DNA of 25,798 nucleotides from a virus, in the IMG/VR virus record IMGVR_UViG_3300002821_000230. One strand, 5' to 3'. The stretch's first letter is position 1, and every line of letters starts with the position of its first letter. Below, in pieces: positions 3 to 25,798 of this stretch. The notes below the pieces were generated by a model. The model saw nothing but the letters and a program-made list of their open reading frames with translations, was not told the DNA's origin and searched no databases. Made by a program: the position numbers and the translations under genes.

Positions 3-149
3 CTTGCCTGTATCACAATCCTGCCACTGCTTTCCCAGTTCGGGATCCCGACATGGCTCGGCATGATCATCCAGGGCCCGATCTGGCTTGTGACCATCTG
101 GGGACTGTATCAGTTCCGCAGCGGCTACCAGACGCAGGGGATGGACTGA
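3..149 (+). CDS. C-terminal part of a small membrane protein (5'-partial; probably continues the ORF starting at 25603)
   Basis: Open frame LACITILPLLSQFGIPTWLGMIIQGPIWLVTIWGLYQFRSGYQTQGMD; stop TGA 147-149 overlaps ATG 149 of next gene. Confidence 0.75.
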   Translation, partial: LACITILPLLSQFGIPTWLGMIIQGPIWLVTIWGLYQFRSGYQTQGMD

Positions 150-1897
150 TGAGGCGCCCCGCCCTCGCCCTCCTCCTCGGCTGCCTCCTGCTCGTCGCGG
201 GAGTCTCGGCGCTCGACGGCTACGAATATTACCAGACGATCGAGTACGCCGCCTGCGACCAGGAAGTCTACCAGCAGGACATCGTGATCCACCGCACCAC
301 CGGCACCGCCTACAACGAGACCGCCGGCGGGCTGGAGACCTGGCATATCTATGTCGGGGACCACTGCCGGGAGGATTACGGCGATGTCCGGTTCACCGAC
401 AGCACCGGGGCAGAGCTCGCGTATTATCTCTGGCCGGACTGTACAAGCAGCAGCGCCCGGTTCTGTGTGCGGTTAGAGGGGGCGGATGCGGCCGGGTCGC
501 TGTTCATCTGGTATGGGAACCCGACGGCAACGACGACGAGCGACGGGGATGCGGCGTATCTGTTTTTTGATACATTTGATGGAGATGCTTTAAACTCAAA
601 TAAATGGACAGATTCAGGAAATTCCGGGGAGGTTACAGTTACTAATGGGGAGGCTGTACTGCGTGCGGCTGCCGCCAGTGCAACTTATTACAATCGTTAT
701 ATAACGTCTAAGTCCTCGTTTAGTGGACTCGGAAACATCTCCGTTGAGATCAAAGCCCGGGTTAATCTCAATGGGGCCAATAGGTATGGATCAAGTGTCG
801 CTGCTGGTCGTTCGGATAGATCTTACTACGCGAACGGGGTCTACGGGGCATCTCATAGATTTTCGTATTCAAATACTAAATACTGGTTTGCAGACGGTAC
901 ATCCCTTGCCTCCTCGGTGACCGCGACAAACAACGTAGTATATCGATTTGATATTTACCAGTCCGGGACTCGAGCAGATTATTACGCAGACGGCGTCCGG
1001 GCGTATCAGGGCGAGACCATTACTTTTAGTTCGTTTCCCTATATCGAGCTGTACATCTCAACCTGGGACGCAGGAAACAATCCGAAACTCCACATCGACT
1101 ACGCCCTCGTCCGCGCCTACAGCGCCACCCCGCCCGCTGCCACCGATTTCTCTGGCGAACAGGAAACCCAGGGCCCGCCCATCGTCGGCTTCACCGCAAC
1201 TCCCACCGTCGGCCTTGCCCCGCTAACCGTCCAGTTCAACGACACGTCGCTCCGCAGCCCGACCTCGTGGACCTGGGACTTTGGCGACGGCAGCACTTCA
1301 ACCGACCAGAACCCGGAACACACATACACCGCAGCAGGCACATATTCCGTCAACCTCACCGTCACCAACGAGTACGGCACCGAGTATAAACTAAAACCAG
1401 ACTACATCACCGTCTACAGCCCCGTTACGGCACAGTTCATGGCCGACGTGACTTATGGAGCCCTCCCGCTAACCGTCCAGTTCACTGACGCCTCATCAGG
1501 CAGCCCGACCTCGTGGACCTGGGACTTTGGCGACGGCAACACTTCAACCGACCAGAACCCGGAACACACATACACCTCCACAGGCACATATACCGTAAAA
1601 CTCATCGCGAGCCATCCATATGACTCCGACGAAGAGACAAAAGTCAACTATATCACCGTCGTGACGCTTCAGCCGTTCCCAGGCTGCAGCAGCAACCCGA
1701 CAGACCCAGACTCAGACGGCCTGTATGAAGACATCAACGGCAACGGCCGGTGGGATTTCCAGGATCTCGTCCTGTTTTTCCAGCATCTCACGTGGTGCAA
1801 CGCGAACCAGCCGATCACCCTGTTTGACTGGAACAGCAACTTTAGATGTGATTTTGATGACGTTCACAAACTGTGGCTGGATGGGGGGATGATATGA
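149..1897 (+). CDS. Secreted adhesin: signal peptide, DUF2341-like domain, lectin-like variable domain, 2x PKD, C-terminal dockerin
   Basis: Start corrected to ATG149 (TGATG overlap, MRRPALALLL signal peptide); DYGDVRFTD..LAYY..WYGNP..SDG..FFDTF; two PKD repeats (LTVQFxD..SPTSWTWDFGDG..NPEHTY..GTYxVxL); EF-hand-like dockerin DPDSDGLYEDINGNGRWDFQD...DWNSNFRCDFDD (about 1697-1885). Confidence 0.88.
   Translation: MRRPALALLLGCLLLVAGVSALDGYEYYQTIEYAACDQEVYQQDIVIHRTTGTAYNETAGGLETWHIYVGDHCREDYGDVRFTDSTGAELAYYLWPDCTSSSARFCVRLEGADAAGSLFIWYGNPTATTTSDGDAAYLFFDTFDGDALNSNKWTDSGNSGEVTVTNGEAVLRAAAASATYYNRYITSKSSFSGLGNISVEIKARVNLNGANRYGSSVAAGRSDRSYYANGVYGASHRFSYSNTKYWFADGTSLASSVTATNNVVYRFDIYQSGTRADYYADGVRAYQGETITFSSFPYIELYISTWDAGNNPKLHIDYALVRAYSATPPAATDFSGEQETQGPPIVGFTATPTVGLAPLTVQFNDTSLRSPTSWTWDFGDGSTSTDQNPEHTYTAAGTYSVNLTVTNEYGTEYKLKPDYITVYSPVTAQFMADVTYGALPLTVQFTDASSGSPTSWTWDFGDGNTSTDQNPEHTYTSTGTYTVKLIASHPYDSDEETKVNYITVVTLQPFPGCSSNPTDPDSDGLYEDINGNGRWDFQDLVLFFQHLTWCNANQPITLFDWNSNFRCDFDDVHKLWLDGGMI
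1255..1576 (+). repeat. 76-bp direct repeat pair (1255-1330 and 1501-1576) in the PKD domains
   Basis: 75/76 identical by eye; single G/A difference at 1293/1539; offset 246 nt (82 codons). Confidence 0.9.
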
Positions 1898-2874: not shown

Positions 2875-3262
2875 GATCTATATCTTCCTTGCTGCCGTGG
2901 TCGCGGCCGCGTTCGTCTATATATTCCTCGATCTTGACAACCGGCTGTATGGCAACCTGTTTGCTGCCGGTTTTGCAGGAATCATGTCAGGGCTCCTGGC
3001 GCTCTGGAGTTTTAACGAGAACACCGTCACCATAACCACTGTGCCGGGAGCTGCCATTGCCGTGCAACACTATCTTAACGATACCCTCGCCAACGTCACC
3101 ACCACATACGCATACCAGACGCATATCGTCCCGATAGTCGATCCGGCACTCGGTTACTTCTGGATGCTGGTTATGGTATTTATGTGGTTCCTGGTCGGGT
3201 ATTTCGTCCTGGAGATCCTGCATGAGAGCCGGATGCCTGATGACGAGGAGGCATACGAATGA
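2861..3262 (+). CDS. Membrane protein, about 3 TM segments, putative virion component
   Basis: ATG2861 with GGAGG RBS; hydrophobic segments; NDT/NVT sequons in the loop. Confidence 0.75.
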   Translation: MITVEIYIFLAAVVAAAFVYIFLDLDNRLYGNLFAAGFAGIMSGLLALWSFNENTVTITTVPGAAIAVQHYLNDTLANVTTTYAYQTHIVPIVDPALGYFWMLVMVFMWFLVGYFVLEILHESRMPDDEEAYE

Positions 3263-3522
3263 GCAGGGGTCGTCGTGTCCCAAAAGCGATCATAATGATC
3301 CTGCCACTCATGTTTATCCTGGCACTGGTGATGCTCCTCCCCGCGATCGCGGGCAGTGCCGAGGCGGAGCACAACATCACGGCGCTTGAGCACAGCGAGG
3401 GTGCTGCGGGAGCTATGAACCTCCTCCTCGTCGGAGACATGATCCTGCCGGTTCTTGCGCTCCTCGTCGGTCTTGCGATCCTGCTGGTCGGTGTTGGATT
3501 CTTCCGCCGTGGAAACTACTGA
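3259..3522 (+). CDS. Two-helix hairpin membrane protein, candidate minor capsid protein
   Basis: 87 aa: basic N-terminus, hydrophobic helix, polar linker with NIT sequon, second hydrophobic helix, basic C-terminus. Confidence 0.6.
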   Translation: MSRGRRVPKAIIMILPLMFILALVMLLPAIAGSAEAEHNITALEHSEGAAGAMNLLLVGDMILPVLALLVGLAILLVGVGFFRRGNY

Positions 3523-3545: not shown

Positions 3546-3576
3546 CACGAATAAACCTCATACCGAGGTGAAAGAA

Positions 3577-3858
3577 TTGGCAAGACGCAGAGAAGTCAAC
3601 CCGATGAACCTGATCATCGCAATCGCGATCGGTATCCTGACCCTGATCGCGGTATTCTCGGTGATCCCGGTGGTCGGTGGATCGATCGACAACGCAATGC
3701 CCGATGTTGGTGACACCTCAGAGTGGAACACCACAAACAACCCGGATCTCCCCAGCGGTGCCAGCATGTGGACGCAGCTCGGGCCGCTGCTTGTGCTCGC
3801 AGTCCTCGCGATGGTGATCGGCCTGGTGATCATGTACTTCCGGAACGCCGCAGGATAA
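3577..3858 (+). CDS. Putative major capsid protein of spindle-shaped virus type (SSV1 VP1 / His1 MCP-like architecture)
   Basis: Likely TTG start 6 nt after GAGGTG (track start GTG3568); NLIIAIAIGILTLIAVFSVIPVVGG helix, linker with NTT sequon, LGPLLVLAVLAMVIGLVIMYF helix; own strong promoter. Confidence 0.7.
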   Translation: MARRREVNPMNLIIAIAIGILTLIAVFSVIPVVGGSIDNAMPDVGDTSEWNTTNNPDLPSGASMWTQLGPLLVLAVLAMVIGLVIMYFRNAAG

Positions 3859-4461: not shown

Positions 4462-5304
4462 ATGGGCGTATCAATACCGATAGAATATCTCTATCTCACG
4501 GTAGGATTACTTGTCGTCGCCGTGATCTACATAATAAACAACCGGAACAACACCAGGCTCTACAACCCGGAGGGCCCGCTGTTTATCAAGGCGCGGAAAA
4601 AGGAGATTCCACTTCTGCGAGTTATCGATCCCGGCACCAACCACGCGCGGCACGTCCTGGGAGACAAGGAACGGGACGACGATCCGGTCTATGCCAAGGA
4701 CATGTGGGGATTGCACGCGGACCCGGCATATATCGAGGGAGATGCGTCTCCTGAGAGGCATCCCGGTGGGCTGCTCATCTACAACATATCCCCGAACGTG
4801 ACATTCCCGATATCGCCGAGGAACGTTCTCGCGCAGCATACTATTCTACGGCACCGCCGGGATCTACCGGAGTTCGCGGAACTCGATTTCCTCAGCGACC
4901 GCGACCTTCTGGTGCTTCTCAGCTCGCCCGCGGATCATCTGCCTCACGATGCCCAGATCTTCACCGACAACTACAAACCCACGATAGTCGAGATCGACGA
5001 GTCCGGGCAGCCGGTCGAGGTTGAGATGAACGCGGCCGATCTGGTGGAACGGATCACGGCGTTCAAGAAATACGCGACCACGCTGCCGGTTGAGGGCGGT
5101 GGGTTTGCGTATCACGAGTATTTCCGGAACAATCCCTACGGCCACAGTTCGCAGACCACGCAAAGAATCAATTATCTGTTCCAGAAGATCGCCGACCGCA
5201 AATCGGCAATGGCAGACAAGTTGTGGACATACGGTCTGATTGCGATCGGGTTGCTGGGTGCCGTGGGCGTGACAATCTATATCATCAGTCTGGCGGCAGG
5301 GTGA
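4462..5304 (+). CDS. Membrane protein with N- and C-terminal TM helices
   Basis: 280 aa; hydrophobic LYLTVGLLVVAVIYII and LWTYGLIAIGLLGAVGVTIYIISL; operon spacing. Confidence 0.8.
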   Translation: MGVSIPIEYLYLTVGLLVVAVIYIINNRNNTRLYNPEGPLFIKARKKEIPLLRVIDPGTNHARHVLGDKERDDDPVYAKDMWGLHADPAYIEGDASPERHPGGLLIYNISPNVTFPISPRNVLAQHTILRHRRDLPEFAELDFLSDRDLLVLLSSPADHLPHDAQIFTDNYKPTIVEIDESGQPVEVEMNAADLVERITAFKKYATTLPVEGGGFAYHEYFRNNPYGHSSQTTQRINYLFQKIADRKSAMADKLWTYGLIAIGLLGAVGVTIYIISLAAG

Positions 5305-5308
5305 TGCC

Positions 5309-5656
5309 ATGGATATGGATGAGAATCGCACCATTCCAGGCATTATCGAGACCGTATATCTGGAGACCGTGCACCAGACCGCCGAGGCACTCAAATACCT
5401 GCATGCTCCAACGGGACCCCTGAAACAGAGGATACTCAATCTTACTGTCCCGTTTTATGAATTGTATCAACACACCCATCATATACCCGCCGTTGCCGAG
5501 GTTATGGAGAACGACGGCACCAAAACGGCGGAACTTGATAACTGGTTTTTCACGACGAGATACTCACCAGATGCCCTGAAACGCGGGATAGCTTTATTCT
5601 CCTGGTATCAAAAGATACTCCTGGAATCGAGGGTGATAACAATTGAGAGGCAGTAG
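5309..5656 (+). CDS. Hypothetical protein
   Basis: 115 aa, GGGTGA upstream, in operon. Confidence 0.75.
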   Translation: MDMDENRTIPGIIETVYLETVHQTAEALKYLHAPTGPLKQRILNLTVPFYELYQHTHHIPAVAEVMENDGTKTAELDNWFFTTRYSPDALKRGIALFSWYQKILLESRVITIERQ

Positions 5657-6125
5657 AGGCAACACCAACGACACGATCAGCGCTGGAGCCGCGGCAAACA
5701 TCGACGACACCCCCAAGGTGTTTGCCGGGCGAAGCGGGATCGATCTATACCTGGCACACATCCTGTTTTCCCTGAACCGGTGGGACTGGATGATTTCAAA
5801 TCTCACAAACACCGGGGATATCAGGATCGTGCCGTTCGCGCGGACGATCATCAGCAAACTGCCTGACAAAGACGTGAAAGTGAAGCTCTTCAAGGCCCTT
5901 AACTCGGACATCCTGGCAGTGAAAAACACCCCCAACAGGTCAACCATCGACAAGGACCAGAAGATACTGGAGATCTGCCAGAACGCGATCTCGGTGGTCT
6001 ATGATCACGTGATCAGGGAGTATGTGCTGAGAGAGACTACTGTTATTCTGCCGATGACACAGGATCCAACCGAGGAGGACGACACAGATGCCGATAGTGT
6101 ACAGACGCCCGACTCAGACGATTGA
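5643..6125 (+). CDS. Hypothetical protein with acidic tail
   Basis: 160 aa, TTG start after GAGGGTGA, overlaps both neighbours. Confidence 0.65.
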   Translation: MRGSRGNTNDTISAGAAANIDDTPKVFAGRSGIDLYLAHILFSLNRWDWMISNLTNTGDIRIVPFARTIISKLPDKDVKVKLFKALNSDILAVKNTPNRSTIDKDQKILEICQNAISVVYDHVIREYVLRETTVILPMTQDPTEEDDTDADSVQTPDSDD

Positions 6126-7179
6126 TCCACTGTATTCCGAGCCAGAACCATCGTCCTCGCTGCAATGGGACATGGTTGCCGACCGGTATGCCGCGCTCTG
6201 TAGCAATTCCAATGGTAATGCCGGTGGCGAACTGAAATTCAGTTCTCTCGCAGAGATGCTTGCCCGGCGTGTGTGCTCTAAATACAACAAAAACGTGATC
6301 TTTGCCATGTTCGGGGAACCAGGCAGCGGCAAATCTATGGCCGCCCTGAGTCTGGCAGAAAGTTGTGCGAAATGGATTGCCAGGTTCCGCGGCGGCAAGC
6401 CTGAAGACTATTTCACGCTCGACAACGTGGCAGTGATACACCCCATAATGTTGCAGGACATGGTCAAGCGCATGCAGAGCCACAATATTTACATCCTTGA
6501 TGATGCGGGTGCCGCATATGACGCCCGAAATTACATGAAACAGGACAACAAGGCTCTGGGATACGTGCTCCAGACGTTTCGGACCTTAAACTCGATCCTG
6601 ATCGTGACAGGCGTTGACGGGGCGATGCTGGATGTCAATCTTCACCGCACCGCGCGGTATTATGCCGAGGTCAGTGAATCACACCACGATCTCGGTTACA
6701 CTGACGTGAAGGTTTTCCGGGCACTCCGGAAGTATCGGCAAAAAACCGTTCATTACAGGTATCTGAACCAGAATATGACGCAGATCATTCGGTATCGAGC
6801 GTATCTGCCAAGCAAGGATCTCATCGAGCCGTATGAGGCGCTCCGGAAAGAGCAGGCGCTCCTGATCCAGACGATGGAAGACCAGGCAGAGAAGAAGAAA
6901 CAGGAGGATCTGAAAAAGCAGCAGGAGGCAAGGGAACAGGAGAAGATCCGGAAACAGGAGGAACTGAGGGAGAAAAAGAGACAGAGGAAACCAGGAGGCG
7001 TTTTACTCACATGCCAAATATGTGGGCATGAGTGGAACTACAAAGGCAAGAAGGTCAAGAATGCCACCTGTCCTGACTGCTCTAGTAAGGTGCCAATCAA
7101 CGGTTACCAGCGCACTGAAGGCTCCACCACCACCAGAACTATTATCCCTACCACCACAGAGGTACCGTCTAGCTGTTAA
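6088..7179 (+). CDS. P-loop ATPase (Zot/AAA-like; candidate packaging or extrusion ATPase) with coiled coil and C-terminal Zn ribbon
   Basis: Walker A GEPGSGKS, Walker B IYILDD; K/E/Q-rich coil; CQIC...CPDC; GAGGAGG RBS. Confidence 0.85.
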   Translation: MPIVYRRPTQTIDPLYSEPEPSSSLQWDMVADRYAALCSNSNGNAGGELKFSSLAEMLARRVCSKYNKNVIFAMFGEPGSGKSMAALSLAESCAKWIARFRGGKPEDYFTLDNVAVIHPIMLQDMVKRMQSHNIYILDDAGAAYDARNYMKQDNKALGYVLQTFRTLNSILIVTGVDGAMLDVNLHRTARYYAEVSESHHDLGYTDVKVFRALRKYRQKTVHYRYLNQNMTQIIRYRAYLPSKDLIEPYEALRKEQALLIQTMEDQAEKKKQEDLKKQQEAREQEKIRKQEELREKKRQRKPGGVLLTCQICGHEWNYKGKKVKNATCPDCSSKVPINGYQRTEGSTTTRTIIPTTTEVPSSC

Positions 7180-14013: not shown

Positions 14014-14577
14014 ATGCCACGAAAACAGGAACACGGGAAAGCAGCACCATACCGGACCGGGGAACTTGCACTCACACGGGGGGAGTACCAGAAACTCCTG
14101 GCCGCGTGTGGGACACAACAGGATCGGGTCCTGATAATGATGGGTGTCGCCCTCGGGTTGAGGCGGTCCGATCTCGTCCGGGTGCGGTGGAGCGATATTG
14201 ACTTCGAGAGGTCGGAACTCCATTATCGGGAGCGGAAAAAGGGCGACCGGTTGAGGACGGTGCCGATAGGCCCAAAACTCCGCCAGGAACTGATGATTCT
14301 GCGAGCCAGCACGCCGAAGAATCAGGCCACCGTGTTCTCGTTCGGGGACCGGCAGGCATACACACGGTTCAACCGGGTCTGCGACCTGGCCGGGATTGAC
14401 CGCAGGCCGATCCATGCACTCAGGGCAACTGCGATCAAGTTCATGCAGGCCGCGGGATGGACACCCGAGCAGGTCGCAGAGATGACCGGCGACACCATCC
14501 GCACAATCCAGGAGCACTACCTGACACCCAGCAGGTCCGAACTCGCAGAGGCAGCAAAGGAGAGGGAGGTGGTCTAA
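14014..14577 (+). CDS. int: Tyrosine recombinase/integrase, catalytic domain only (187 aa)
   Basis: GLRRSD (R), RKKG (K), HALR (H-x-x-R), TGD at the usual LGH position, EHY nucleophile. Confidence 0.9.
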   Translation: MPRKQEHGKAAPYRTGELALTRGEYQKLLAACGTQQDRVLIMMGVALGLRRSDLVRVRWSDIDFERSELHYRERKKGDRLRTVPIGPKLRQELMILRASTPKNQATVFSFGDRQAYTRFNRVCDLAGIDRRPIHALRATAIKFMQAAGWTPEQVAEMTGDTIRTIQEHYLTPSRSELAEAAKEREVV

Positions 14578-16339: not shown

Positions 16340-16720
16340 TTACCACCTCAAAATTTGAGCCTCTATACTCCCACCGCGGTCCCATATCCGGTATAGATCA
16401 TTTAACACCTCGCCGAGAGCCTCGCCGGTCGGCGGATCGATCCCGTCCCGGCTGGCGAGGTCGTCGAGTTGTGACCACGGTTTTATGATACCATCTATCT
16501 CTATGCCGCCTGGATAGAGGGTGATCGGGATCACCTCGCTCAACTCAAAGTACGGCGTTCTAAACGACCATTTTGATCGATATGGTACGCCCTCCCACCC
16601 GTAGAACGATACCAGATCACCTACAGCATATTTGTGACCGATCCGGATTGTCTGCCGGACGGTGCCGTCAACGACCCCCCGGATCTTCTGGTCATACGTA
16701 AGAGGGAGATTATGTTTCAT
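16340..16720 (-). CDS. ASCH/PUA-like domain protein
   Basis: DG..RQTIR....GD.V.FYGW.G...LA.RDG pattern; ATG16720 overlaps the upstream TGA. Confidence 0.7.
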   Translation of the reverse strand: MKHNLPLTYDQKIRGVVDGTVRQTIRIGHKYAVGDLVSFYGWEGVPYRSKWSFRTPYFELSEVIPITLYPGGIEIDGIIKPWSQLDDLASRDGIDPPTGEALGEVLNDLYRIWDRGGSIEAQILRW

Positions 16721-17193
16721 CTGCACCGCCTCCTGATCGGGCAGGTCATTCCCGGCGGACATCTGCGCTCGGTCGAGCCGCAGGTATCACGTTTGCCCGT
16801 CTCGCAGCGTATCTGCTGGTATGCCGGGCACTGTTCGGGAGCTGCCGGCACCTCCCCGACGGTTTTGTATGGCCCGAGGGTCTCAATACCCAGCTCCTGC
16901 GCTAGGGTAAACTCGCGCGCAGACCCCACGCTCCCGGTTGACCAGCCGGGAAGGAGGAGCATGGCATCAGGGTCGAGCCTGGAGATGATATCCAGATCGG
17001 CATCGACCCATTCTGAGTGCGCGATTTCATGAATATACTGTTCGAAGTGGGCGGTGTTGAGGTGCGGGGTGAACACCGCCCACCCCTTCCGCCACGCTGC
17101 GATCGCGTACTCCCTGGCGACCGAGATGTTGTTGTTCGTCTCCTCTGAATCCATGCCGGTATACGGACCGCAGATGTAGAGCAGCGGTCTCAT
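16717..17193 (-). CDS. DUF4406 / nucleoside 2-deoxyribosyltransferase-like protein with Cys-rich tail
   Basis: LYICGPYT, AVFTPH, MLLLPGWS..S.GSAREF..A..LGI pattern with the conserved Glu. Confidence 0.75.
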   Translation of the reverse strand: MRPLLYICGPYTGMDSEETNNNISVAREYAIAAWRKGWAVFTPHLNTAHFEQYIHEIAHSEWVDADLDIISRLDPDAMLLLPGWSTGSVGSAREFTLAQELGIETLGPYKTVGEVPAAPEQCPAYQQIRCETGKRDTCGSTERRCPPGMTCPIRRRCR

Positions 17194-18650: not shown

Positions 18651-18898
18651 TTTTTGTCGATGTCACATCAATATCCTCAGGGAAGGATACCCCTTGCTTC
18701 GGCAAGGTCTTCGGAGTCCCTCCTCTACCTTGCGCAAGCGTCTTGTTGTTGTGATATGTTTTTTATAGTATATATATGTATTTAAAGAGGCAAAAAGGGG
18801 GCTAAAACCACCTTTCAGGAGAGGGGGGTATCTTCCTGCGGCAGATCGTAAGGAGCATCGACAAAAACAATCAGTGTGCATACATTTATTATCTCAGC

Positions 18899-18913
18899 AA
18901 TATACAGTATATT
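18899..18913. promoter_or_regulatory. Palindromic operator upstream of the RHH gene
   Basis: AATATAC-A-GTATATT perfect 7-bp inverted repeat, 20 nt before ATG18934. Confidence 0.6.
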
Positions 18914-18933
18914 TGCACAAAGAGGCAAGTTAC

Positions 18934-19638
18934 ATGAGAAAACAACGTACTACACTATCCTTACCGCCTGATCTCATCGACCGGGCGAGGACCGCAGGTC
19001 TGACAAACATCTCAGAGTTTTGTTCTCGGGCACTTGAGGCCTATCTTGAGGGAGTCGAGAAAGCTGAAGCCGCTGCAACAAAACTCCTTGAAGAGGACAG
19101 GTATCAGGAGGAGCTCACAAACGAGGAGATCGATCGGGTGCTGGAAGAACACCTCGCGAAACACCGAGACCAGATACTCTCACGTCTCGTGAAATATGGG
19201 TCCTTAGGCAGAAAATGTATCGAGAAGATCAGGGTCCGTATTTTGCTCGACACCGGCAGAGAGATCCCGCCAACTCGAATTAAAGCTGCTCTTGTCAAGT
19301 TGCGCGACTCGGCCTGGGAAAATGGTGACCTTCATGTTGCACATGTAAAACTTCAGTATGATCGCGAGTATAGTCTTTATGGAGCAAAAATATGTGACTA
19401 TCTTGTGACCAGCGAAGACCGTCTCTCGGAGGCGATACGCGTCAAGGCAGAACATGACCCGGGTCTAACCTATTTGTGGGCCAGCGAGATTGTCGAGCAT
19501 TTCGCCAGCCTCGGTATCACCATACACAATCCAACGGTATACCGGGTGCTCGATACGATCTCGATCGACCAGCCAGCCGCGACACCGGTCAGAGAACCCC
19601 AACACGTACCACAACACACATATCACCCAACCGCATAA
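18934..19638 (+). CDS. Protein with N-terminal ribbon-helix-helix (CcdA/CopG-like) domain
   Basis: MRKQRTTLSLPPDLIDRARTAGLTNISEFCSRALEAYL; start corrected to ATG18934 (GAGG upstream). Confidence 0.8.
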   Translation: MRKQRTTLSLPPDLIDRARTAGLTNISEFCSRALEAYLEGVEKAEAAATKLLEEDRYQEELTNEEIDRVLEEHLAKHRDQILSRLVKYGSLGRKCIEKIRVRILLDTGREIPPTRIKAALVKLRDSAWENGDLHVAHVKLQYDREYSLYGAKICDYLVTSEDRLSEAIRVKAEHDPGLTYLWASEIVEHFASLGITIHNPTVYRVLDTISIDQPAATPVREPQHVPQHTYHPTA

Positions 19639-20252: not shown

Positions 20253-20283
20253 CCGCGACAGATATACCGCGATAGATATATAC
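20253..20283 (+). promoter_or_regulatory. Promoter of the structural block with a 14-bp tandem repeat
   Basis: CCGCGACAGATATA (20253-20266) and CCGCGATAGATATA (20267-20280) run into GATATATAC. Confidence 0.6.
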
Positions 20284-20330
20284 ACCCTAAATCCATTATC
20301 GTTACTCATGAGTAAACGAGGCGGGTGTTA

Positions 20331-22757
20331 ATGGGTTTACTTGACGCCATAACAGGCTGGGCCAAAAGTGCCGGGCAGCAGGCGTACCAGAACGTGATCC
20401 GGTCAGGGCAGCGGGGGTACGAGAGTTCCAGACAGGCACACGGTGGTCGATCCCCCACATGGCCGATCGTTACCCAACAGACCCGACAGGCACAACAGGC
20501 CCGGTCTCGCGTGAGTGGTGGCACGACCGGCGGTCGCGAGGTCACCGGGGTAAAAGGGGTCGAGTCGGGTGTATCAAACCCCACAGAGTCGATGTATCTC
20601 TACCCAATCTACACAGCGGCAAAGTCTCTTGCCGAATCTTACAAGAAGAATGTCACAGACAAGTTCTCGGGGTATGTAGAACCTCGACTCAAGGGTCATG
20701 GTGCCTGGGAAACCGTCGGCCAGGCGGCCACCGGGCTCGTCTCATCTCCAGGACTTACAGTCGAGTTCCTCGGCATGATCCCGGCCGGCGCAGAACGGCT
20801 GGCGCGGGAAACCGTCCGGGCCCCCAGCACCCTCCCACAAATGGCAGCATCCGGGCTCGCTTATCAGGCACACGGGATTGCTTCCGGGCTCAAAGAGAAC
20901 CCCGGCCGGACCGCGGGCGAACTCGTCGGGATGGGTCTGGTTACTCACGGGATCACCCGCGGTGCCACCAGGAGCCCGGTCCGTCCCGCCGTGGATGTAG
21001 CAAGGTTCCCGCTTGAATCCCACATCTCGTTCGGCATCAAGACCGCCCCCTCCCGCGGCAAGGTGGTCGGGTTCCAGCCGGTGGTCGGCATCAGCAAAAC
21101 CCCAAAAGGTACCCGCCCAACAGTCGGCACCCCCAGTGTCCGGATTGAGGCTGCACTCGGCGGTGAACGGTTCACGCCGGCAACCCCGCTGGAGACCCGG
21201 ATTGTCCAGAAAGCCCTCGGCGGCCAGGAAGCGGCCAGGATCGGCTATGCGAGGAACGTCCGGAAAGTCACACAGTCGTCCGGGCTCACCCTGAAACAGG
21301 CGACCCCGGTAATCCAGGAGGTCATCACCCAGCACAACATCCCCAACCCCAAGGCGGTATCAAAAGCGATCGCCACCGGGCTCCGGTCCGAGGGCGCACA
21401 ACTCTATGGCAGTGTTGTCCAGCGAGGTATCGGGCAGGAGGCCGGGAAGCCCGGCCTGTCCCGTGTCCCGCGCGACTTCGATATTCAGGTCGCCAACGCC
21501 CAGGCGTTCCAGAGGAAGATCATCAACGACATCAACCGGGCAGCCGGCAGGCAGGTCGTCGCGCCGGAAGGCCGTGGGGGGGTCGTCGTCCGGGAGACCG
21601 GCGCCAAACTTTTCGACATCCACGACCTTGAAACCACTCTCTCTGAACGGCAGTTCACCCCGAAAACTCCATCAGAGTATATCGCGTTCGGGATCAAAGG
21701 AGAGAAACTTGTCCCGACACGAGAAGGCATCCCGGCGATCACTCTCTCGGAGCAGGCGACCCGTAAACTCGAGGGTTCAATGCAGCTCCGGCCGGCCGTG
21801 GAAACCCTCGATGTTCCAGGCTCAACCCTGACACTCAAGGGGCAACTCCTCCCCAAAAGCTCCGGCAGGGTCAAGGACATCTCTGATACCTATTTCGCGG
21901 AAAAACTGGCCATCGACGTGATGAAAGGCAGCAAAAACCCGGTGACGGTTTCCAGGGCAATTGTTGGCGAACAATACCTGAACATGTACCTCGAAACCTG
22001 GGGCGAGGAGGTTGCCGCATCGGTCAGGGCACAGTATGCAAAAGAACTTGCCGGAGGCACACTGTCCGTGAAACTGGCAGATTTCTCCCAACCCGCGGTA
22101 AAGTCACCAGCGGTCCCAGCGGCCAGCGATTTCTACACCGGTGCGGTTGCAATTCAGTCACCATATTATGCTGCGGCATCACCCTCCAGGCCCGGGACCC
22201 CCGCAAGGAGCCCGACCTCGTCATCGATGTATTCCGCAGCATCGGAGATCGCGCGGGGCAGCGGCGTCGGCAGCGGGTCTCTGCTACCATCTCCGTCCCG
22301 GTCGCCGCCTCAGTATAGCCCGCCGGCATACACTCCGCCCTCCTTGTCGTCGGTATACACCACACCTTACTCACCACCTTACTCACCACCTTACTCACCA
22401 CCTTACTCACCACCTTACTCACCACCTTACTCACCACCTTACTCACCACCTTACTCACCACCTTACTCACCACCTTACTCACCACCCTACTCACCACCTT
22501 ACTCACCTCCCTACTCACCTCCCTACTCACCTCCCTACTCACCTCCCTACTCGCCGCCGGTATACACTCCCCCATACATCCCCCAGCAGAAGAGGATCAG
22601 GCCCAAAGACGACCGCAAACTCAGAGCCATTCGTCCCGACCTTTCCCTAACCGGTTTTGACTGGACGGTGACAAACCCGGTGCCGACATGGGAATCTGTC
22701 TTTGGCACCACCAAAACACCGAACCTCACCATAACCCTGTCGGAGTTCAAATTATGA
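20331..22757 (+). CDS. Large multidomain protein: Gly/Ala-rich N-terminus, AbiEii/Pol-beta-like nucleotidyltransferase domain, Ser/Pro-rich region with (YSPP)16
   Basis: ATG20331 after GAGGCGG (track start GTG20325); LYGS (21402) ... RVPRDFD (D at 21474 and 21480) ... KLFDIH ... ITLSEQATRKL ... RVKDISD (21867-21887). Confidence 0.75.
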   Translation: MGLLDAITGWAKSAGQQAYQNVIRSGQRGYESSRQAHGGRSPTWPIVTQQTRQAQQARSRVSGGTTGGREVTGVKGVESGVSNPTESMYLYPIYTAAKSLAESYKKNVTDKFSGYVEPRLKGHGAWETVGQAATGLVSSPGLTVEFLGMIPAGAERLARETVRAPSTLPQMAASGLAYQAHGIASGLKENPGRTAGELVGMGLVTHGITRGATRSPVRPAVDVARFPLESHISFGIKTAPSRGKVVGFQPVVGISKTPKGTRPTVGTPSVRIEAALGGERFTPATPLETRIVQKALGGQEAARIGYARNVRKVTQSSGLTLKQATPVIQEVITQHNIPNPKAVSKAIATGLRSEGAQLYGSVVQRGIGQEAGKPGLSRVPRDFDIQVANAQAFQRKIINDINRAAGRQVVAPEGRGGVVVRETGAKLFDIHDLETTLSERQFTPKTPSEYIAFGIKGEKLVPTREGIPAITLSEQATRKLEGSMQLRPAVETLDVPGSTLTLKGQLLPKSSGRVKDISDTYFAEKLAIDVMKGSKNPVTVSRAIVGEQYLNMYLETWGEEVAASVRAQYAKELAGGTLSVKLADFSQPAVKSPAVPAASDFYTGAVAIQSPYYAAASPSRPGTPARSPTSSSMYSAASEIARGSGVGSGSLLPSPSRSPPQYSPPAYTPPSLSSVYTTPYSPPYSPPYSPPYSPPYSPPYSPPYSPPYSPPYSPPYSPPYSPPYSPPYSPPYSPPYSPPYSPPVYTPPYIPQQKRIRPKDDRKLRAIRPDLSLTGFDWTVTNPVPTWESVFGTTKTPNLTITLSEFKL
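22365..22556 (+). repeat. 12-bp tandem repeat CCTTACTCACCA x16 encoding PYSP
   Basis: First 10 units identical (22365-22484); last 6 carry only synonymous changes. Confidence 0.95.
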
Positions 22758-25606
22758 GACGACAAACTGTTGTTATCCTGGTCGCGCTCCTGGCATTGTG
22801 CCTGCTCGTTGTGCCGGCTGGCGCGTGGCAGGAGGATTTCCAGTCGGGAACGGCGTATGGGTGGACGGCCACTGGTGGCAATGCCGCGGTAGAGCCATAT
22901 CAGCACGTGGATAGATACGCATTGAAAGTTCCCCGGTATACAACCGTGTGGGCCAATCCAGAGCAGAACTTTAATTATCTTGCACTCACGAGCCTGTTTG
23001 GCGATATGCCCTACAAGACAATAAAGATCTACTCAGAAACAGGCACTCTCCTTTGCGATATAGGTATAACCTTTTGGCCGCTCACGGCCCACCGGGTAGA
23101 GGTGGTCTTCACCGGGACCACCGCGAACGTTTATTGTGATGGTCTTTTTGTTAATAGTGTATCATGTAACGGCCAACCCTATAATTTTGCGTATACTAGA
23201 GGCGAGACTACTCCTGATAATGACTGGATCGATGACGTGGTCATCGGCGGCAGCGAACCAGACATTCTCGGCATCATCCCGCCAGGCTGGTATGTCCTCA
23301 AACACCCGACCGATCCGTATGCAAGCGGTCTCCATAGAAGCGACGATACATTCGCCAATCCTCATATAATGCATGCAACCTACGGTCTTGACGACCTGGC
23401 GGACGAAAACACCAGGATCGTGCTGCAACCAATGGGGTCCGGCTATTTCCTCAACACAACCTATCTCCCTGTAGGCGAAAATTTCGGAGTCGTCGCCCTC
23501 AACATCACAGAACTCCTGATAAACAATCCAGATGCCCCACCCGGATACTATTACCTGAAACTGATGCGGGGCGACACCCTCCTGGACTATGGTCTGTTTC
23601 CATACACCAACGGCGGCGGTACGATCTCGTTTGATGCAGACTCTTATGTCTCGACGCAAACCACAACCGTCTCGCACGAGATATCGATCTTCAGCATCCA
23701 GGATTACACTTACAGGGGCCAGATCATTGATATCTATGGCAACGAGAAAACATCGTGGCCGATCACCTCGATGACCGGCACCCATTCTGTTGATCTCACC
23801 GGCTATTCTTCCGGGACATATTTCCTCCTGCTCAAAGCAACCGACCGGGACACCGGTGAGGAATACGTCTTCGATGTCGACCATGCTGAGGTGAACGAGG
23901 AGATCTGGGTCACCGGCACGGCGTATGATGCCGAGACCGGCGAGCCCCTTGAAGGCGTCACCGTGGATATCGGCCAGTTTGGTACCATAACCAGTAACGT
24001 CACCGTGGCGGACGGCAGTTATGCGACCGTTAAAGGGCTGTATGCCGACAACCCGATCACCGTCAACGCGAGCAAAGCCGGGTACACCCACAACAACTTC
24101 TCGTTTACGCCGCTGGGTAACGGTCTCAAGACGGTTAACCTGTACCTGATCCCGTCTCCCCCCAATTTCACCGGCGCGGCGGCCATCGGGGGCCTGGTCC
24201 ACGACATACCATACCGGCAGCCGGTCGGCGGGGCGACCGTCACGATCGCAAACGGCACCTGGAGCAACACAACGATTGCCAACACCACCGGGTACTACAT
24301 CTTTTCAGATCTTGCCGTGAACGAATCCTATAATGTCAATTCAACCCTTGTCGGGTATCAACCTTCGGCAGTATACTCGGCAACGACTCAAAACGAGACC
24401 TTTGTGAGGCAGGATATAGAGATGAGCGGACTCTACACGCTCACACTCGAACTCAGGGACGCCACCGACCACAGCCTGATCACTACCAGCATGACTGTAG
24501 AGGCAGATGATGCCACAAACGTCACCACAAACGGGCAAACTACGTTCCACAACCTTGATTATGGCATTGTTACGGTCACCGTCTCCGGCAACGACGACTA
24601 TTATGGCGTCTCTGAGAACATCCTGGTCGAAGAGGATACCCTCAAAACGATCTATCTCACCCGCAAGACAGAGAGTACCCCGTTTGCCTATCCGCCGCAC
24701 AATGTCCGGTTTATCGTCAGGTCAGCGTTTGGTGCCCCTATCGAAGGTGTTACCGTTGAGGCTACCGGTTACGAGACCACAATGGGCAGTTTTTCGTGGT
24801 TGTTTGACCTGCTCGGTATAGATTACGAGAAGACACAGGTTCACAACCAGACGATGAACGGCACCACCGGCAGCGATGGCGGCATCGATTTCATGATGTT
24901 TGAGGCGATCAAGTATCGGCTCACATTTTACAAGGACGGAGTGATCAATACCACCTGGGAAGGTTTTCCAAAAGACGAGTATTACACCATCTGGGCGCCG
25001 ACGGTTGGCCCGTCCGAGTGGTTTGAGTACGGAGTCAACCCGTTGGAGGCGGTCAACTTCACCGTCACGGGAACCACCGCCACCGAGGATGAGGCAACCA
25101 TCACCGTCCACTACAACGACACGCTCGGAGAGACTACCAGCGCGGCGGTATACCTGAACCAGACGTTTACCAACGGCACCGAGATACTGGTCAGCCAGTA
25201 TCTTGGCGGAACCGCACACACCTGGAACCATACATTCACTCTCGATGGCGACCACCGGGGTGAGAGTTATCTCGTCCATCTGCGGGCCCAGCACGGGACA
25301 CTCGGCAACATCACCCGCGATTTTGGTGTCTATTTCAAGCCGGCACCGATCTCGTTTGGCCTGCCCGAAGACCTCCTCCTGTATGGCGCGATGGCGGTGA
25401 TGATATTTACCGCGCTCTTCTTCGGCCAGAGTTCCGTGGGGGCGGGCTGTATTGTGTTCGCGTTTGAGGGCTGGCTTTTCTACTGGATAGGCTGGCTCCA
25501 GGATCTCGGTAGTGAGTACGCGGTCGGCACAGCACTCATCATCATCAGTGTGGTGGCGGTTCTGGTGAACGTGATGCAACGATCCAAGCGGGAGCGATAC
25601 GCATGA
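22754..25606 (+). CDS. Large glycosylated adhesin/terminal-fibre-like protein (signal peptide, CarboxypepD_reg-like beta-sandwich repeats, C-terminal approx. 3 TM anchor)
   Basis: Start corrected to ATG22754 (ATGA overlap); MRRQTVVILVALLALCLLVVPAGA; repeats such as VTGTAYDAETGEPLEGVTV..ASKAGY and IGGLVHD..QPVGGATV; about 20 N-x-S/T sequons. Confidence 0.85.
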   Translation: MRRQTVVILVALLALCLLVVPAGAWQEDFQSGTAYGWTATGGNAAVEPYQHVDRYALKVPRYTTVWANPEQNFNYLALTSLFGDMPYKTIKIYSETGTLLCDIGITFWPLTAHRVEVVFTGTTANVYCDGLFVNSVSCNGQPYNFAYTRGETTPDNDWIDDVVIGGSEPDILGIIPPGWYVLKHPTDPYASGLHRSDDTFANPHIMHATYGLDDLADENTRIVLQPMGSGYFLNTTYLPVGENFGVVALNITELLINNPDAPPGYYYLKLMRGDTLLDYGLFPYTNGGGTISFDADSYVSTQTTTVSHEISIFSIQDYTYRGQIIDIYGNEKTSWPITSMTGTHSVDLTGYSSGTYFLLLKATDRDTGEEYVFDVDHAEVNEEIWVTGTAYDAETGEPLEGVTVDIGQFGTITSNVTVADGSYATVKGLYADNPITVNASKAGYTHNNFSFTPLGNGLKTVNLYLIPSPPNFTGAAAIGGLVHDIPYRQPVGGATVTIANGTWSNTTIANTTGYYIFSDLAVNESYNVNSTLVGYQPSAVYSATTQNETFVRQDIEMSGLYTLTLELRDATDHSLITTSMTVEADDATNVTTNGQTTFHNLDYGIVTVTVSGNDDYYGVSENILVEEDTLKTIYLTRKTESTPFAYPPHNVRFIVRSAFGAPIEGVTVEATGYETTMGSFSWLFDLLGIDYEKTQVHNQTMNGTTGSDGGIDFMMFEAIKYRLTFYKDGVINTTWEGFPKDEYYTIWAPTVGPSEWFEYGVNPLEAVNFTVTGTTATEDEATITVHYNDTLGETTSAAVYLNQTFTNGTEILVSQYLGGTAHTWNHTFTLDGDHRGESYLVHLRAQHGTLGNITRDFGVYFKPAPISFGLPEDLLLYGAMAVMIFTALFFGQSSVGAGCIVFAFEGWLFYWIGWLQDLGSEYAVGTALIIISVVAVLVNVMQRSKRERYA

Positions 25607-25798
25607 TGCTATACAAGATTATGCTCAGTCTGTTTATCTTCGGTCTCGTGGCAGGCGCACTTAACGCGTCAGGCATCTACTCGGTCGCGGTGCCAGAGAG
25701 TGGCGTTAGCATCTCACAGGCAGACGTTGTTGACTTTGCGTCATCCAGCGACGACGGTCTTAACTTCTTCTACATCTACAGCAGTATTGCAACGGCGG
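25603..25798 (+). CDS. N-terminal part of a small membrane protein (3'-partial; joins in frame to 1-149)
   Basis: ATG25603 overlaps the upstream TGA; MMLYKIMLSLFIFGLVAGALNASG...; open to the window end. Confidence 0.75.
   Translation, partial: MMLYKIMLSLFIFGLVAGALNASGIYSVAVPESGVSISQADVVDFASSSDDGLNFFYIYSSIATA

Follow-up and report, generated by a model that had tools for sequence, protein, structure and literature searches.

In classical nucleotidyltransferases of the DNA polymerase beta (Pol-beta) type, motifs I and II are separated by 9-13 residues. DUF1814 enzymes (Pfam PF08843; among them S. agalactiae AbiEii, M. tuberculosis MenT1/3/4 (TglT) and H. pylori JHP933) are toxins of AbiE and MenAT systems, and the AbiEii/MenT enzymes add nucleotides to the acceptor ends of transfer RNAs (tRNAs). 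This DUF1814/AbiEii family is defined by an unusually long spacer between motifs I and II, by an Arg in motif II that is absent from other Pol-beta proteins (R63, before D67 and D69), by a Lys in motif III (KLxAaxxR) and by a family-specific motif IV, +DxxD (Dy et al. 2014, PMC3985639). Pol-beta nucleotidyltransferases and GNATs are also among the domains catalogued in the polyvalent proteins of phages and conjugative elements (Iyer et al. 2017, PMC5512222). Here, we describe a protein of 808 amino acids (aa) encoded at positions 20331-22757 on the plus strand of IMG/VR virus record IMGVR_UViG_3300002821_000230. The whole analysed stretch of 25,798 nucleotides, referred to as the window, is by its sequence an integrase-bearing archaeal virus or provirus of ~26 kb, with Methanoregula and Methanoculleus among the hosts of its relatives. 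The central domain of the protein was previously unannotated, and we propose that it is a nucleotidyltransferase with a DUF1814-like active site, carried as an exchangeable cassette. Positions of the parts of the gene given below are all on the plus strand.

Motifs, conservation and predicted fold of the central domain

An earlier note, made from the letters of this DNA alone, had read the motif order hYGS, R..RDhD, a third Asp (LFDIH), I..hs.E...RKL and R.KD..D in the centre of the protein. This order holds and spans residues 361-521, with YGS at 361-363, R380, PRDFD at 382-386, LFDIH at 429-433, TLSEQATRKL at 473-482 and GRVKDISD at 514-521. When the DUF1814 motif order was written as a composite regular expression, it matched residues 361-521; in 20,000 shuffles of residues 1-650 it found no match. 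A stronger argument for the reality of the domain than this shuffle test is the conservation of the motif columns among relatives. A word-indexed search had returned only 8 of these; an exhaustive profile search with the aligned domain (alignment A2) then yielded 129 protein clusters (<=50% identity), 55 of them at E<1e-30, from which 124 domain segments were re-aligned to the profile and counted. One entry of the hit list, the YadA-type bacterial autotransporter P0091, is likely a false member.

Motif I, h-G-[GS] (Y361 G362 S363, 21405-21413), lies at the junction of strand 1 and the next helix, and its Gly and Ser are found in 113 and 110 of the 124 segments, respectively. Motif II (R380-V-P-R-D384-F-D386, 21462-21482) places the first two predicted catalytic Asp residues at the start of strand 2, with the Arg four residues before D384. 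The Arg is kept in 107/124 segments and D386 in 110/124 (a further 6 have Glu), and D384 is an Asp in every aligned segment that has a residue at this column (117/124). The third acidic residue, in L-F-D431-I-H433 (21609-21623), belongs to strand 5 (model residues 144-150) and is Asp in 109/124 segments and Glu in 5 more, accompanied by the His in 101/124. Motif III (S475-E-Q-A-T-R480-K481-L, 21747-21770) sits in the helix of model residues 190-201, where K481 (119/124), Q477 (113/124), E476 (110/124) and R480 (108/124) stand out. Motif IV, the +DxxD pentad R515-V-K517-D518-I-S-D521 (21867-21887), is covered by ~98 segments, which retain K517 in 97, D518 in 93 and D521 in 91 cases; its Lys and Asp (K233 and D234 of the model query) are invariant in alignment A3. 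Overall, the best-conserved columns are G362, S363, R380, D384, D386, D431, H433, E476, Q477, R480, K481, R515, K517, D518 and D521. The Pol-beta motifs (h-G-[GS], D-h-[DE]-h and the third carboxylate) are kept in 88-94% of the 124 segments, i.e. in nearly all that cover them, and when 26 long members were aligned separately, D384, D386 and D431 did not vary at all. Thus the acidic triad, whose conservation in homologues the earlier note had named as decisive, is conserved.

The same can be said of the fold, the other point named beforehand, which is predicted to be Pol-beta-like. In the folded domain (aa 285-580, 21177-22064), helices at the N-terminus lead into a Pol-beta core with a mixed five-stranded sheet (alpha-beta-alpha-beta-alpha-beta), which is followed by a helical lobe at the C-terminus. 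The AlphaFold2 model of residues 285-600 (md3ee793bbef8), built on the 43-sequence alignment A3, has a mean predicted local distance difference test score (pLDDT) of 91 and a predicted template modelling score of 0.86. Alignment depth was decisive, as 7 sequences gave a pLDDT of 51 and a reliable model was obtained only with 43. In the model, a strand is followed by the GS at the N-terminus of a helix, the DxD strand, a helix, a beta-hairpin and a fifth strand with the third Asp, and the helical lobe after the core carries K481 and the KDxxD motif. From their positions on these canonical elements, the acidic residues would be clustered in space. Searching the PDB with Foldseek gave weak E-values (0.03-0.1), and the top matches are almost all nucleotidyltransferases, headed by JHP933, TglT/MenT3, MenT1 and giant-virus poly(A) polymerases. 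Based on the motifs and the model, we consider it very likely that the domain is an active Pol-beta-type nucleotidyltransferase, in which G362/S363, D384, D386 and D431 would bind a nucleoside triphosphate (NTP) via two metals, and K481 together with K517-D518-x-x-D521 would complete a nucleotide pocket of the AbiEii/MenT (DUF1814) type.

The best structural matches in BFVD are two large viral proteins (probability 1.00), both of ~1000-1100 aa or more: A0A514K2U2 of a Nitrosopumilus spindle-shaped virus (1125 aa, labelled 'IgA FC receptor', E 1.3e-4) and the unnamed A0A5P9U643 (E 3.7e-8). Both were matched by structure only, and tblastn in the phage collection revealed no sequence similarity to them. 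The presence of such a large protein in a spindle-shaped virus, together with the location of our gene in a structural block, might be taken to mean that the fold is kept as a mere building block of a tail or terminal structure, without catalysis. We regard this as very improbable, given that D384 is found in every covering sequence and that >95% of the sequences have D386, D431 and K481 unchanged or conservatively substituted, a pattern of acidic residues and Lys that is typical of active enzymes; moreover, a different enzyme, whose HD signature is likewise intact, can take the place of the centre, as described below.

Relation to DUF1814 enzymes and viral poly(A) polymerases

Counterparts of all four defining features of DUF1814/AbiEii proteins are found in the 808-aa protein: the long spacer, R380, K481 (for motif III, in a differing context) and K517-D518-x-x-D521. 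The spacer between motifs I and II measures 20 residues compared to 15 in AbiEii, and R380 precedes D384 by four residues, the same spacing as that of R63 before D67 in AbiEii. Motif II itself reads RVPRDFDI, where archaeal AbiEii proteins have RFSEDIDL or RFSDDLDF.

Several observations weigh against equating the domain with AbiEii. The DUF1814 Ser two residues before the first Asp, present in archaeal AbiEii proteins, is replaced by Pro (P382; Pro in 86, Ala in 11 and Leu in 5 of the 124 segments); judging from the numbering S78 and D80, this Ser would correspond to the auto-phosphorylated Ser of MenT3. The context of motif III is E-Q-x-x-R-K-L instead of KLxAaxxR; K481-L482 is conserved (K in 119/124), and the downstream Arg is absent from the conserved columns. 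Compared to DUF1814 enzymes, a beta-hairpin of ~15 residues is inserted between motifs III and IV. In Pfam, neither the protein nor the domain nor any of 43 relatives matches PF08843 at E<=1; more generally, the domain matches nothing in the Pfam, PHROGs, NCBIfam and PADLOC libraries. Comparison with 21 archaeal AbiEii sequences by hhalign gave probabilities of 0.2-0.7%, though the motifs align in register. Finally, viral poly(A)-polymerase-type domains are structural neighbours as near as AbiEii/MenT. The AbiEii-like reading of the earlier note therefore has to be narrowed: the four DUF1814 motifs, the intact and conserved triad and the Pol-beta fold stand, but membership in PF08843 is not supported by the profile searches. 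As the four motifs are present while the profile and hhalign searches are negative and the sequences differ as listed, sequence and model taken together characterize the domain as DUF1814-like in its active-site design, not as a demonstrated PF08843 member. We consider it likely, by a cautious estimate, that AbiEii/MenT enzymes are its closest functional analogues. For family models such as those of Pfam, the domain supplies a new divergent branch of DUF1814-like nucleotidyltransferases. Other sequence searches added little: phmmer and profile searches of PDB sequences matched only the low-complexity tail of the protein, and in 50,697 phage records tblastn gave no match, either for the domain or for two distant relatives.

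The structural neighbourhood suggests another possibility, namely an RNA tailing enzyme in the style of the giant-virus and poxvirus poly(A) polymerases, which in the infected cell would extend transcripts of virus or host by untemplated tails rather than modify tRNA in the manner of a toxin. The search by shape in the ESM Atlas returned phage Poly_A_pol_cat-like proteins (TM score 0.78 by target, root-mean-square deviation 2.2) along with unnamed nucleotidyltransferases and one cluster, 84% of whose members carry PF08843 (AbiEii), at a TM score of 0.64. However, the structural match to the viral poly(A) polymerases (Megavirus/Mimivirus 4p37/4wse, vaccinia VP55, PF19244 and the small phage proteins that bear this annotation) covers mainly the core, and the alignments with JHP933 and TglT take in a larger part of the two lobes (172-176 residues, model 43-294) than that with the poly(A) polymerase (157 residues). 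The language-model neighbours fall mostly into clusters with Poly_A_pol_cat in a minority of their members, as is also the case for PF19244 in the matching clusters, and the domain itself has no Pfam sequence match to PF19244. We know of no viral poly(A) polymerase with a +DxxD or Arg -4 signature. Both the Arg at this position and the +DxxD pentad have been described as DUF1814-specific (PMC3985639). Altogether, a tailing enzyme of this kind appears unlikely.

Exchange of the central cassette and its possible delivery

The domain differs from DUF1814 toxins in its setting. Whereas these are stand-alone proteins of ~250 aa, the domain described here is embedded in proteins of 800-2900 aa, and whereas DUF1814/MenT toxins are paired with an antitoxin, it occurs in a viral structural block without an antitoxin gene. 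In the 808-aa protein it is preceded by an N-terminal module (aa 3-215, 20331-20969), which includes a Gly-rich, weakly hydrophobic stretch (aa 120-215), and followed by a Ser/Pro/Tyr-rich low-complexity region with ~16 YSPP repeats (22300-22616, from translation and composition) and by a conserved C-terminal segment (aa 765-810, RPDLSLTGFDWTVTNPVPTWESVFG...; 22617-22757), which ends in a stop codon overlapping the next ATG and is near-identical in P0009 and P0011, although the centre differs. P0009, a closely related ENA metagenome protein, reveals how these parts are combined: it shares 84% identity with residues 3-214 and its last ~45 residues are nearly identical, whereas its central ~500 residues are unrelated. 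The centre of P0009 belongs to a family of 13 members with an invariant H...HD...H...D signature (H497, H535-D536, H586 and D618). One member of this family matches Pfam HD (E 2.6e-4, 21.7 bits, slightly below the cut-off of 22 bits) and another is labelled as an HD-domain protein by NCBI. By this signature, P0009 carries an HD-type phosphohydrolase cassette in place of the nucleotidyltransferase. Moreover, a segment equivalent to N-terminal residues ~87-230 precedes HD cassettes in the distant proteins P0141-P0148 as well (E 5e-13 to 6e-6), and relatives, including the proteins with HD cassettes, have analogous Pro/Ser/Tyr-rich tails. Most family members contain one recognisable enzyme each. 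In P0063 (2876 aa; locus L037, 4036-12666) there are two, a GNAT domain (aa 2206-2287, E 1.4e-4) lying directly before the nucleotidyltransferase (aa 2359-2643). An OrfB_IS605 transposase gene is found upstream of P0063.

On these sequence comparisons, the nucleotidyltransferase is an exchangeable cassette in an N- and C-terminal scaffold common to many archaeal mobile elements. The exchange recalls, by analogy, the way in which polymorphic toxins and the polyvalent proteins of phages and conjugative elements are put together, and a swappable cassette would point to a function in an arms race. As the tail also follows HD cassettes, it is part of the scaffold rather than of the enzyme. This bears on the idea that the domain nucleotidylylates a hydroxyl of a protein, small molecule or glycan, like ANT(2''), LnuA or adenylyltransferases, with Tyr or Ser residues in the YSPP tail of the same protein, a protein of the virion or a component of the host envelope as possible acceptors. 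The retention of the tail next to a different enzyme argues against this idea; the protein has no signal peptide and hence no obvious route to the envelope; and the motif set is that of RNA-acting DUF1814 enzymes. We consider such an activity improbable, slightly more so than RNA tailing.

The N-terminal third was said in the earlier note to be rich in Gly and Ala and to lack a signal peptide, and composition and hydropathy agree with this: residues 121-330 are Gly- and Ala-rich, and no N-terminal signal or transmembrane segment is present in the 808-aa protein, the sole weak hydrophobic stretch being 134-152 (Kyte-Doolittle 1.23). At this value, a transmembrane or pilot N-terminus is not supported by hydropathy. 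Language-model searches of the Atlas gave MafB and PT-TG pre-toxin domains as leads for the N-terminus, with scores (0.82-0.88) below the reliability line of the tool; we treat them as leads only, and they do not establish the N-terminus as a translocation region.

In the mechanism that we infer, catalysis, acceptor, timing and packaging included, the predicted catalytically intact nucleotidyltransferase (residues ~285-580) would be held as cargo between the conserved N-terminal module and the Pro/Ser/Tyr-rich tail with the conserved C-terminal segment. It would transfer a nucleoside monophosphate from the NTP to a hydroxyl on one of the macromolecules of the host, the most likely site being the 3' end of an RNA, e.g. 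the acceptor end of tRNA by analogy with MenT. Nucleotide transfer would then be a weapon of the element against its host, and the enzyme may enter the cell with the virion. A modular archaeal virus or provirus protein whose AbiEii/MenT-like cassette attacks host RNA is in our view the best explanation of sequence, model and analogy, and a fairly probable one. That the protein is packaged and delivered is plausible, if rather doubtful; the position of the gene, the HD cassette swap, the GNAT fusion in P0063 and the precedent of phage polyvalent proteins are what lends it plausibility. T4 Alt is a known virion-delivered enzyme. With Alt and with the phage and conjugative polyvalent proteins our protein shares that it is a large multidomain protein which a mobile element encodes alongside its virion components and which is equipped with a nucleotide- or protein-modifying enzyme, and with the polyvalent proteins also the cassette-like variation of the enzymatic domain. 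It differs from both in that its host elements are non-tailed and archaeal virus-like, and from the polyvalent proteins in that these combine several disparate catalytic domains per polypeptide, in contrast to the single enzyme of most members here. By extension, and only tentatively, one may picture a conserved cargo carrier of non-tailed viruses (spindle-shaped or pleomorphic) of methanogens and other archaea, whose ends mount it in the particle and whose swappable enzymatic centre (nucleotidyltransferase or HD phosphohydrolase, at times with GNAT) is injected together with the genome, rewriting the RNA or the nucleotide signalling of the host.

To our knowledge, there is very little information on the means by which the non-tailed viruses of archaea, and of methanogens in particular, take over or fight their hosts, and it is routine to call the large proteins of these viruses 'hypothetical'. 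The statement of the earlier note that no such enzyme has been described in spindle-shaped viruses agrees with our literature searches for nucleotidyltransferases in spindle-shaped archaeal viruses, which found no description of such a protein. If the enzyme acts on tRNA like MenT, it would be the first case known to us of a mobile element using this toxin chemistry offensively from a structural-module protein. A cargo carrier, if real, would correspond in archaea to the polyvalent and ejection proteins of phages, and in this part of the virosphere it would be the first virion protein known to us that delivers an enzyme. The named relatives, all labelled 'hypothetical', derive from Methanoregula, Methanoculleus, a Thermoplasmatales metagenome-assembled genome, Candidatus Methanoperedens and Aenigmatarchaeota. 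The family, which comprises at least 129 protein clusters in elements of these archaea, is now assigned a testable enzymatic activity.

Gene boundaries, neighbouring genes and the element

Translation of the window gives a frame without stops at 20325/20331-22757 (+). ATG 20331, preceded by the ribosome-binding-like site GAGGCGGG, is the likely start codon of the gene; an in-frame GTG lies at 20325. The intergenic region upstream contains repeated GATATATAC-type TATA-like elements. At 20253-20290, in the 124-bp gap before the gene, there are direct repeats CGCGA[C/T]AGATATA(TA)C resembling TATA boxes, possibly the archaeal promoter of the structural block. The gene is the first of a unidirectional block, with adhesin-like genes coming next. 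Its immediate partner (22754-25606, +) encodes an adhesin-like membrane protein with an N-terminal signal/transmembrane segment, CarboxypepD_reg domains and C-terminal transmembrane helices. In the ATGA at 22754-22757 the stop codon of the 808-aa gene overlaps an ATG of the adhesin frame, which is Met23 of the longest adhesin open reading frame (ORF) and is directly followed by a hydrophobic, signal-like segment. Since the stop overlaps the adhesin ATG and the 4-nt overlap is also present in the relative loci L001 and L007, the description of a lead gene translationally coupled to the adhesin is accurate at the sequence level.

The relatives lie in integrase-bearing elements, and the adhesin-like gene is the sole neighbour conserved across 10 loci. 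Homologues precede a CarboxypepD_reg protein in L001, L003, L005, L007, L013 and L039; this large adhesin-like protein follows directly or after 1-3 small ORFs, and often a DUF2341/PKD protein comes then. Small downstream ORFs are common to L003 and L006 only, and L001, the closest relative, is the one locus that has the upstream genes as well. Across the 10 loci, no conserved antitoxin-like small partner gene is found next to the large gene. This context bears on whether the enzyme could be an addiction or abortive-infection toxin that acts inside the lysogen, stabilising the integrated element or excluding competing viruses, and is not delivered by a particle. Such a role would be in keeping with the toxin nature of DUF1814 enzymes in AbiE and MenAT systems, with the integrases of the elements and with the upstream gene at 18874-19638 (+), whose 254-aa product has a weakly CcdA-antitoxin/ribbon-helix-helix-like N-terminus (E 9.9e-5). 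Yet this gene is conserved only in L001, there is no conserved small partner, and the domain sits in proteins of 800-2900 aa whose genes are co-oriented and translationally coupled to adhesin-like structural genes, so that we give this role little credit.

A DUF2341 and PKD protein is encoded near the 5' end of the window (53-1897) and the adhesin at the opposite end, while in the relatives L007 and L013 a DUF2341 gene follows the adhesin; this suggests that the window is a circularly permuted complete element. An ORF at 25603-25798 runs off the 3' end of the window. The same 808-aa protein also occurs on a 25,813-bp contig. Pfam scans of ~30 window ORFs and PHROGs scans of the two large proteins turned up no portal, terminase or MuF. 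Two small proteins of adjacent genes (3259-3522 and 3568-3858, +), each with two strongly hydrophobic helices and a polar linker between them, match no Pfam family, and their layout would fit that of capsid proteins of spindle-shaped or pleomorphic viruses. A short tyrosine recombinase of 187 aa (14014-14577, +; Phage_integrase, E 8e-15) may correspond to the C-terminal portion of an integrase of the kind that is split upon integration, and the same 187-aa form opens L001. This relative also contains the 158-aa DUF7768/DUF4406 protein (E 7e-6 and 6e-5) encoded at 16717-17193 on the minus strand. The protein encoded at 6088-7179 (+) has 363 aa and weakly matches an AAA/STAND P-loop, and an ORF of this length is found at a similar place in L039, a likeness by position and size only. 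In L039, a related provirus on a 177-kb contig, an ArdC-N and MPTase-PolyVal protein (5044-5898), i.e. the hallmark domain pair of bacterial polyvalent and anti-restriction proteins, is encoded a few kb upstream of the protein with the nucleotidyltransferase domain.

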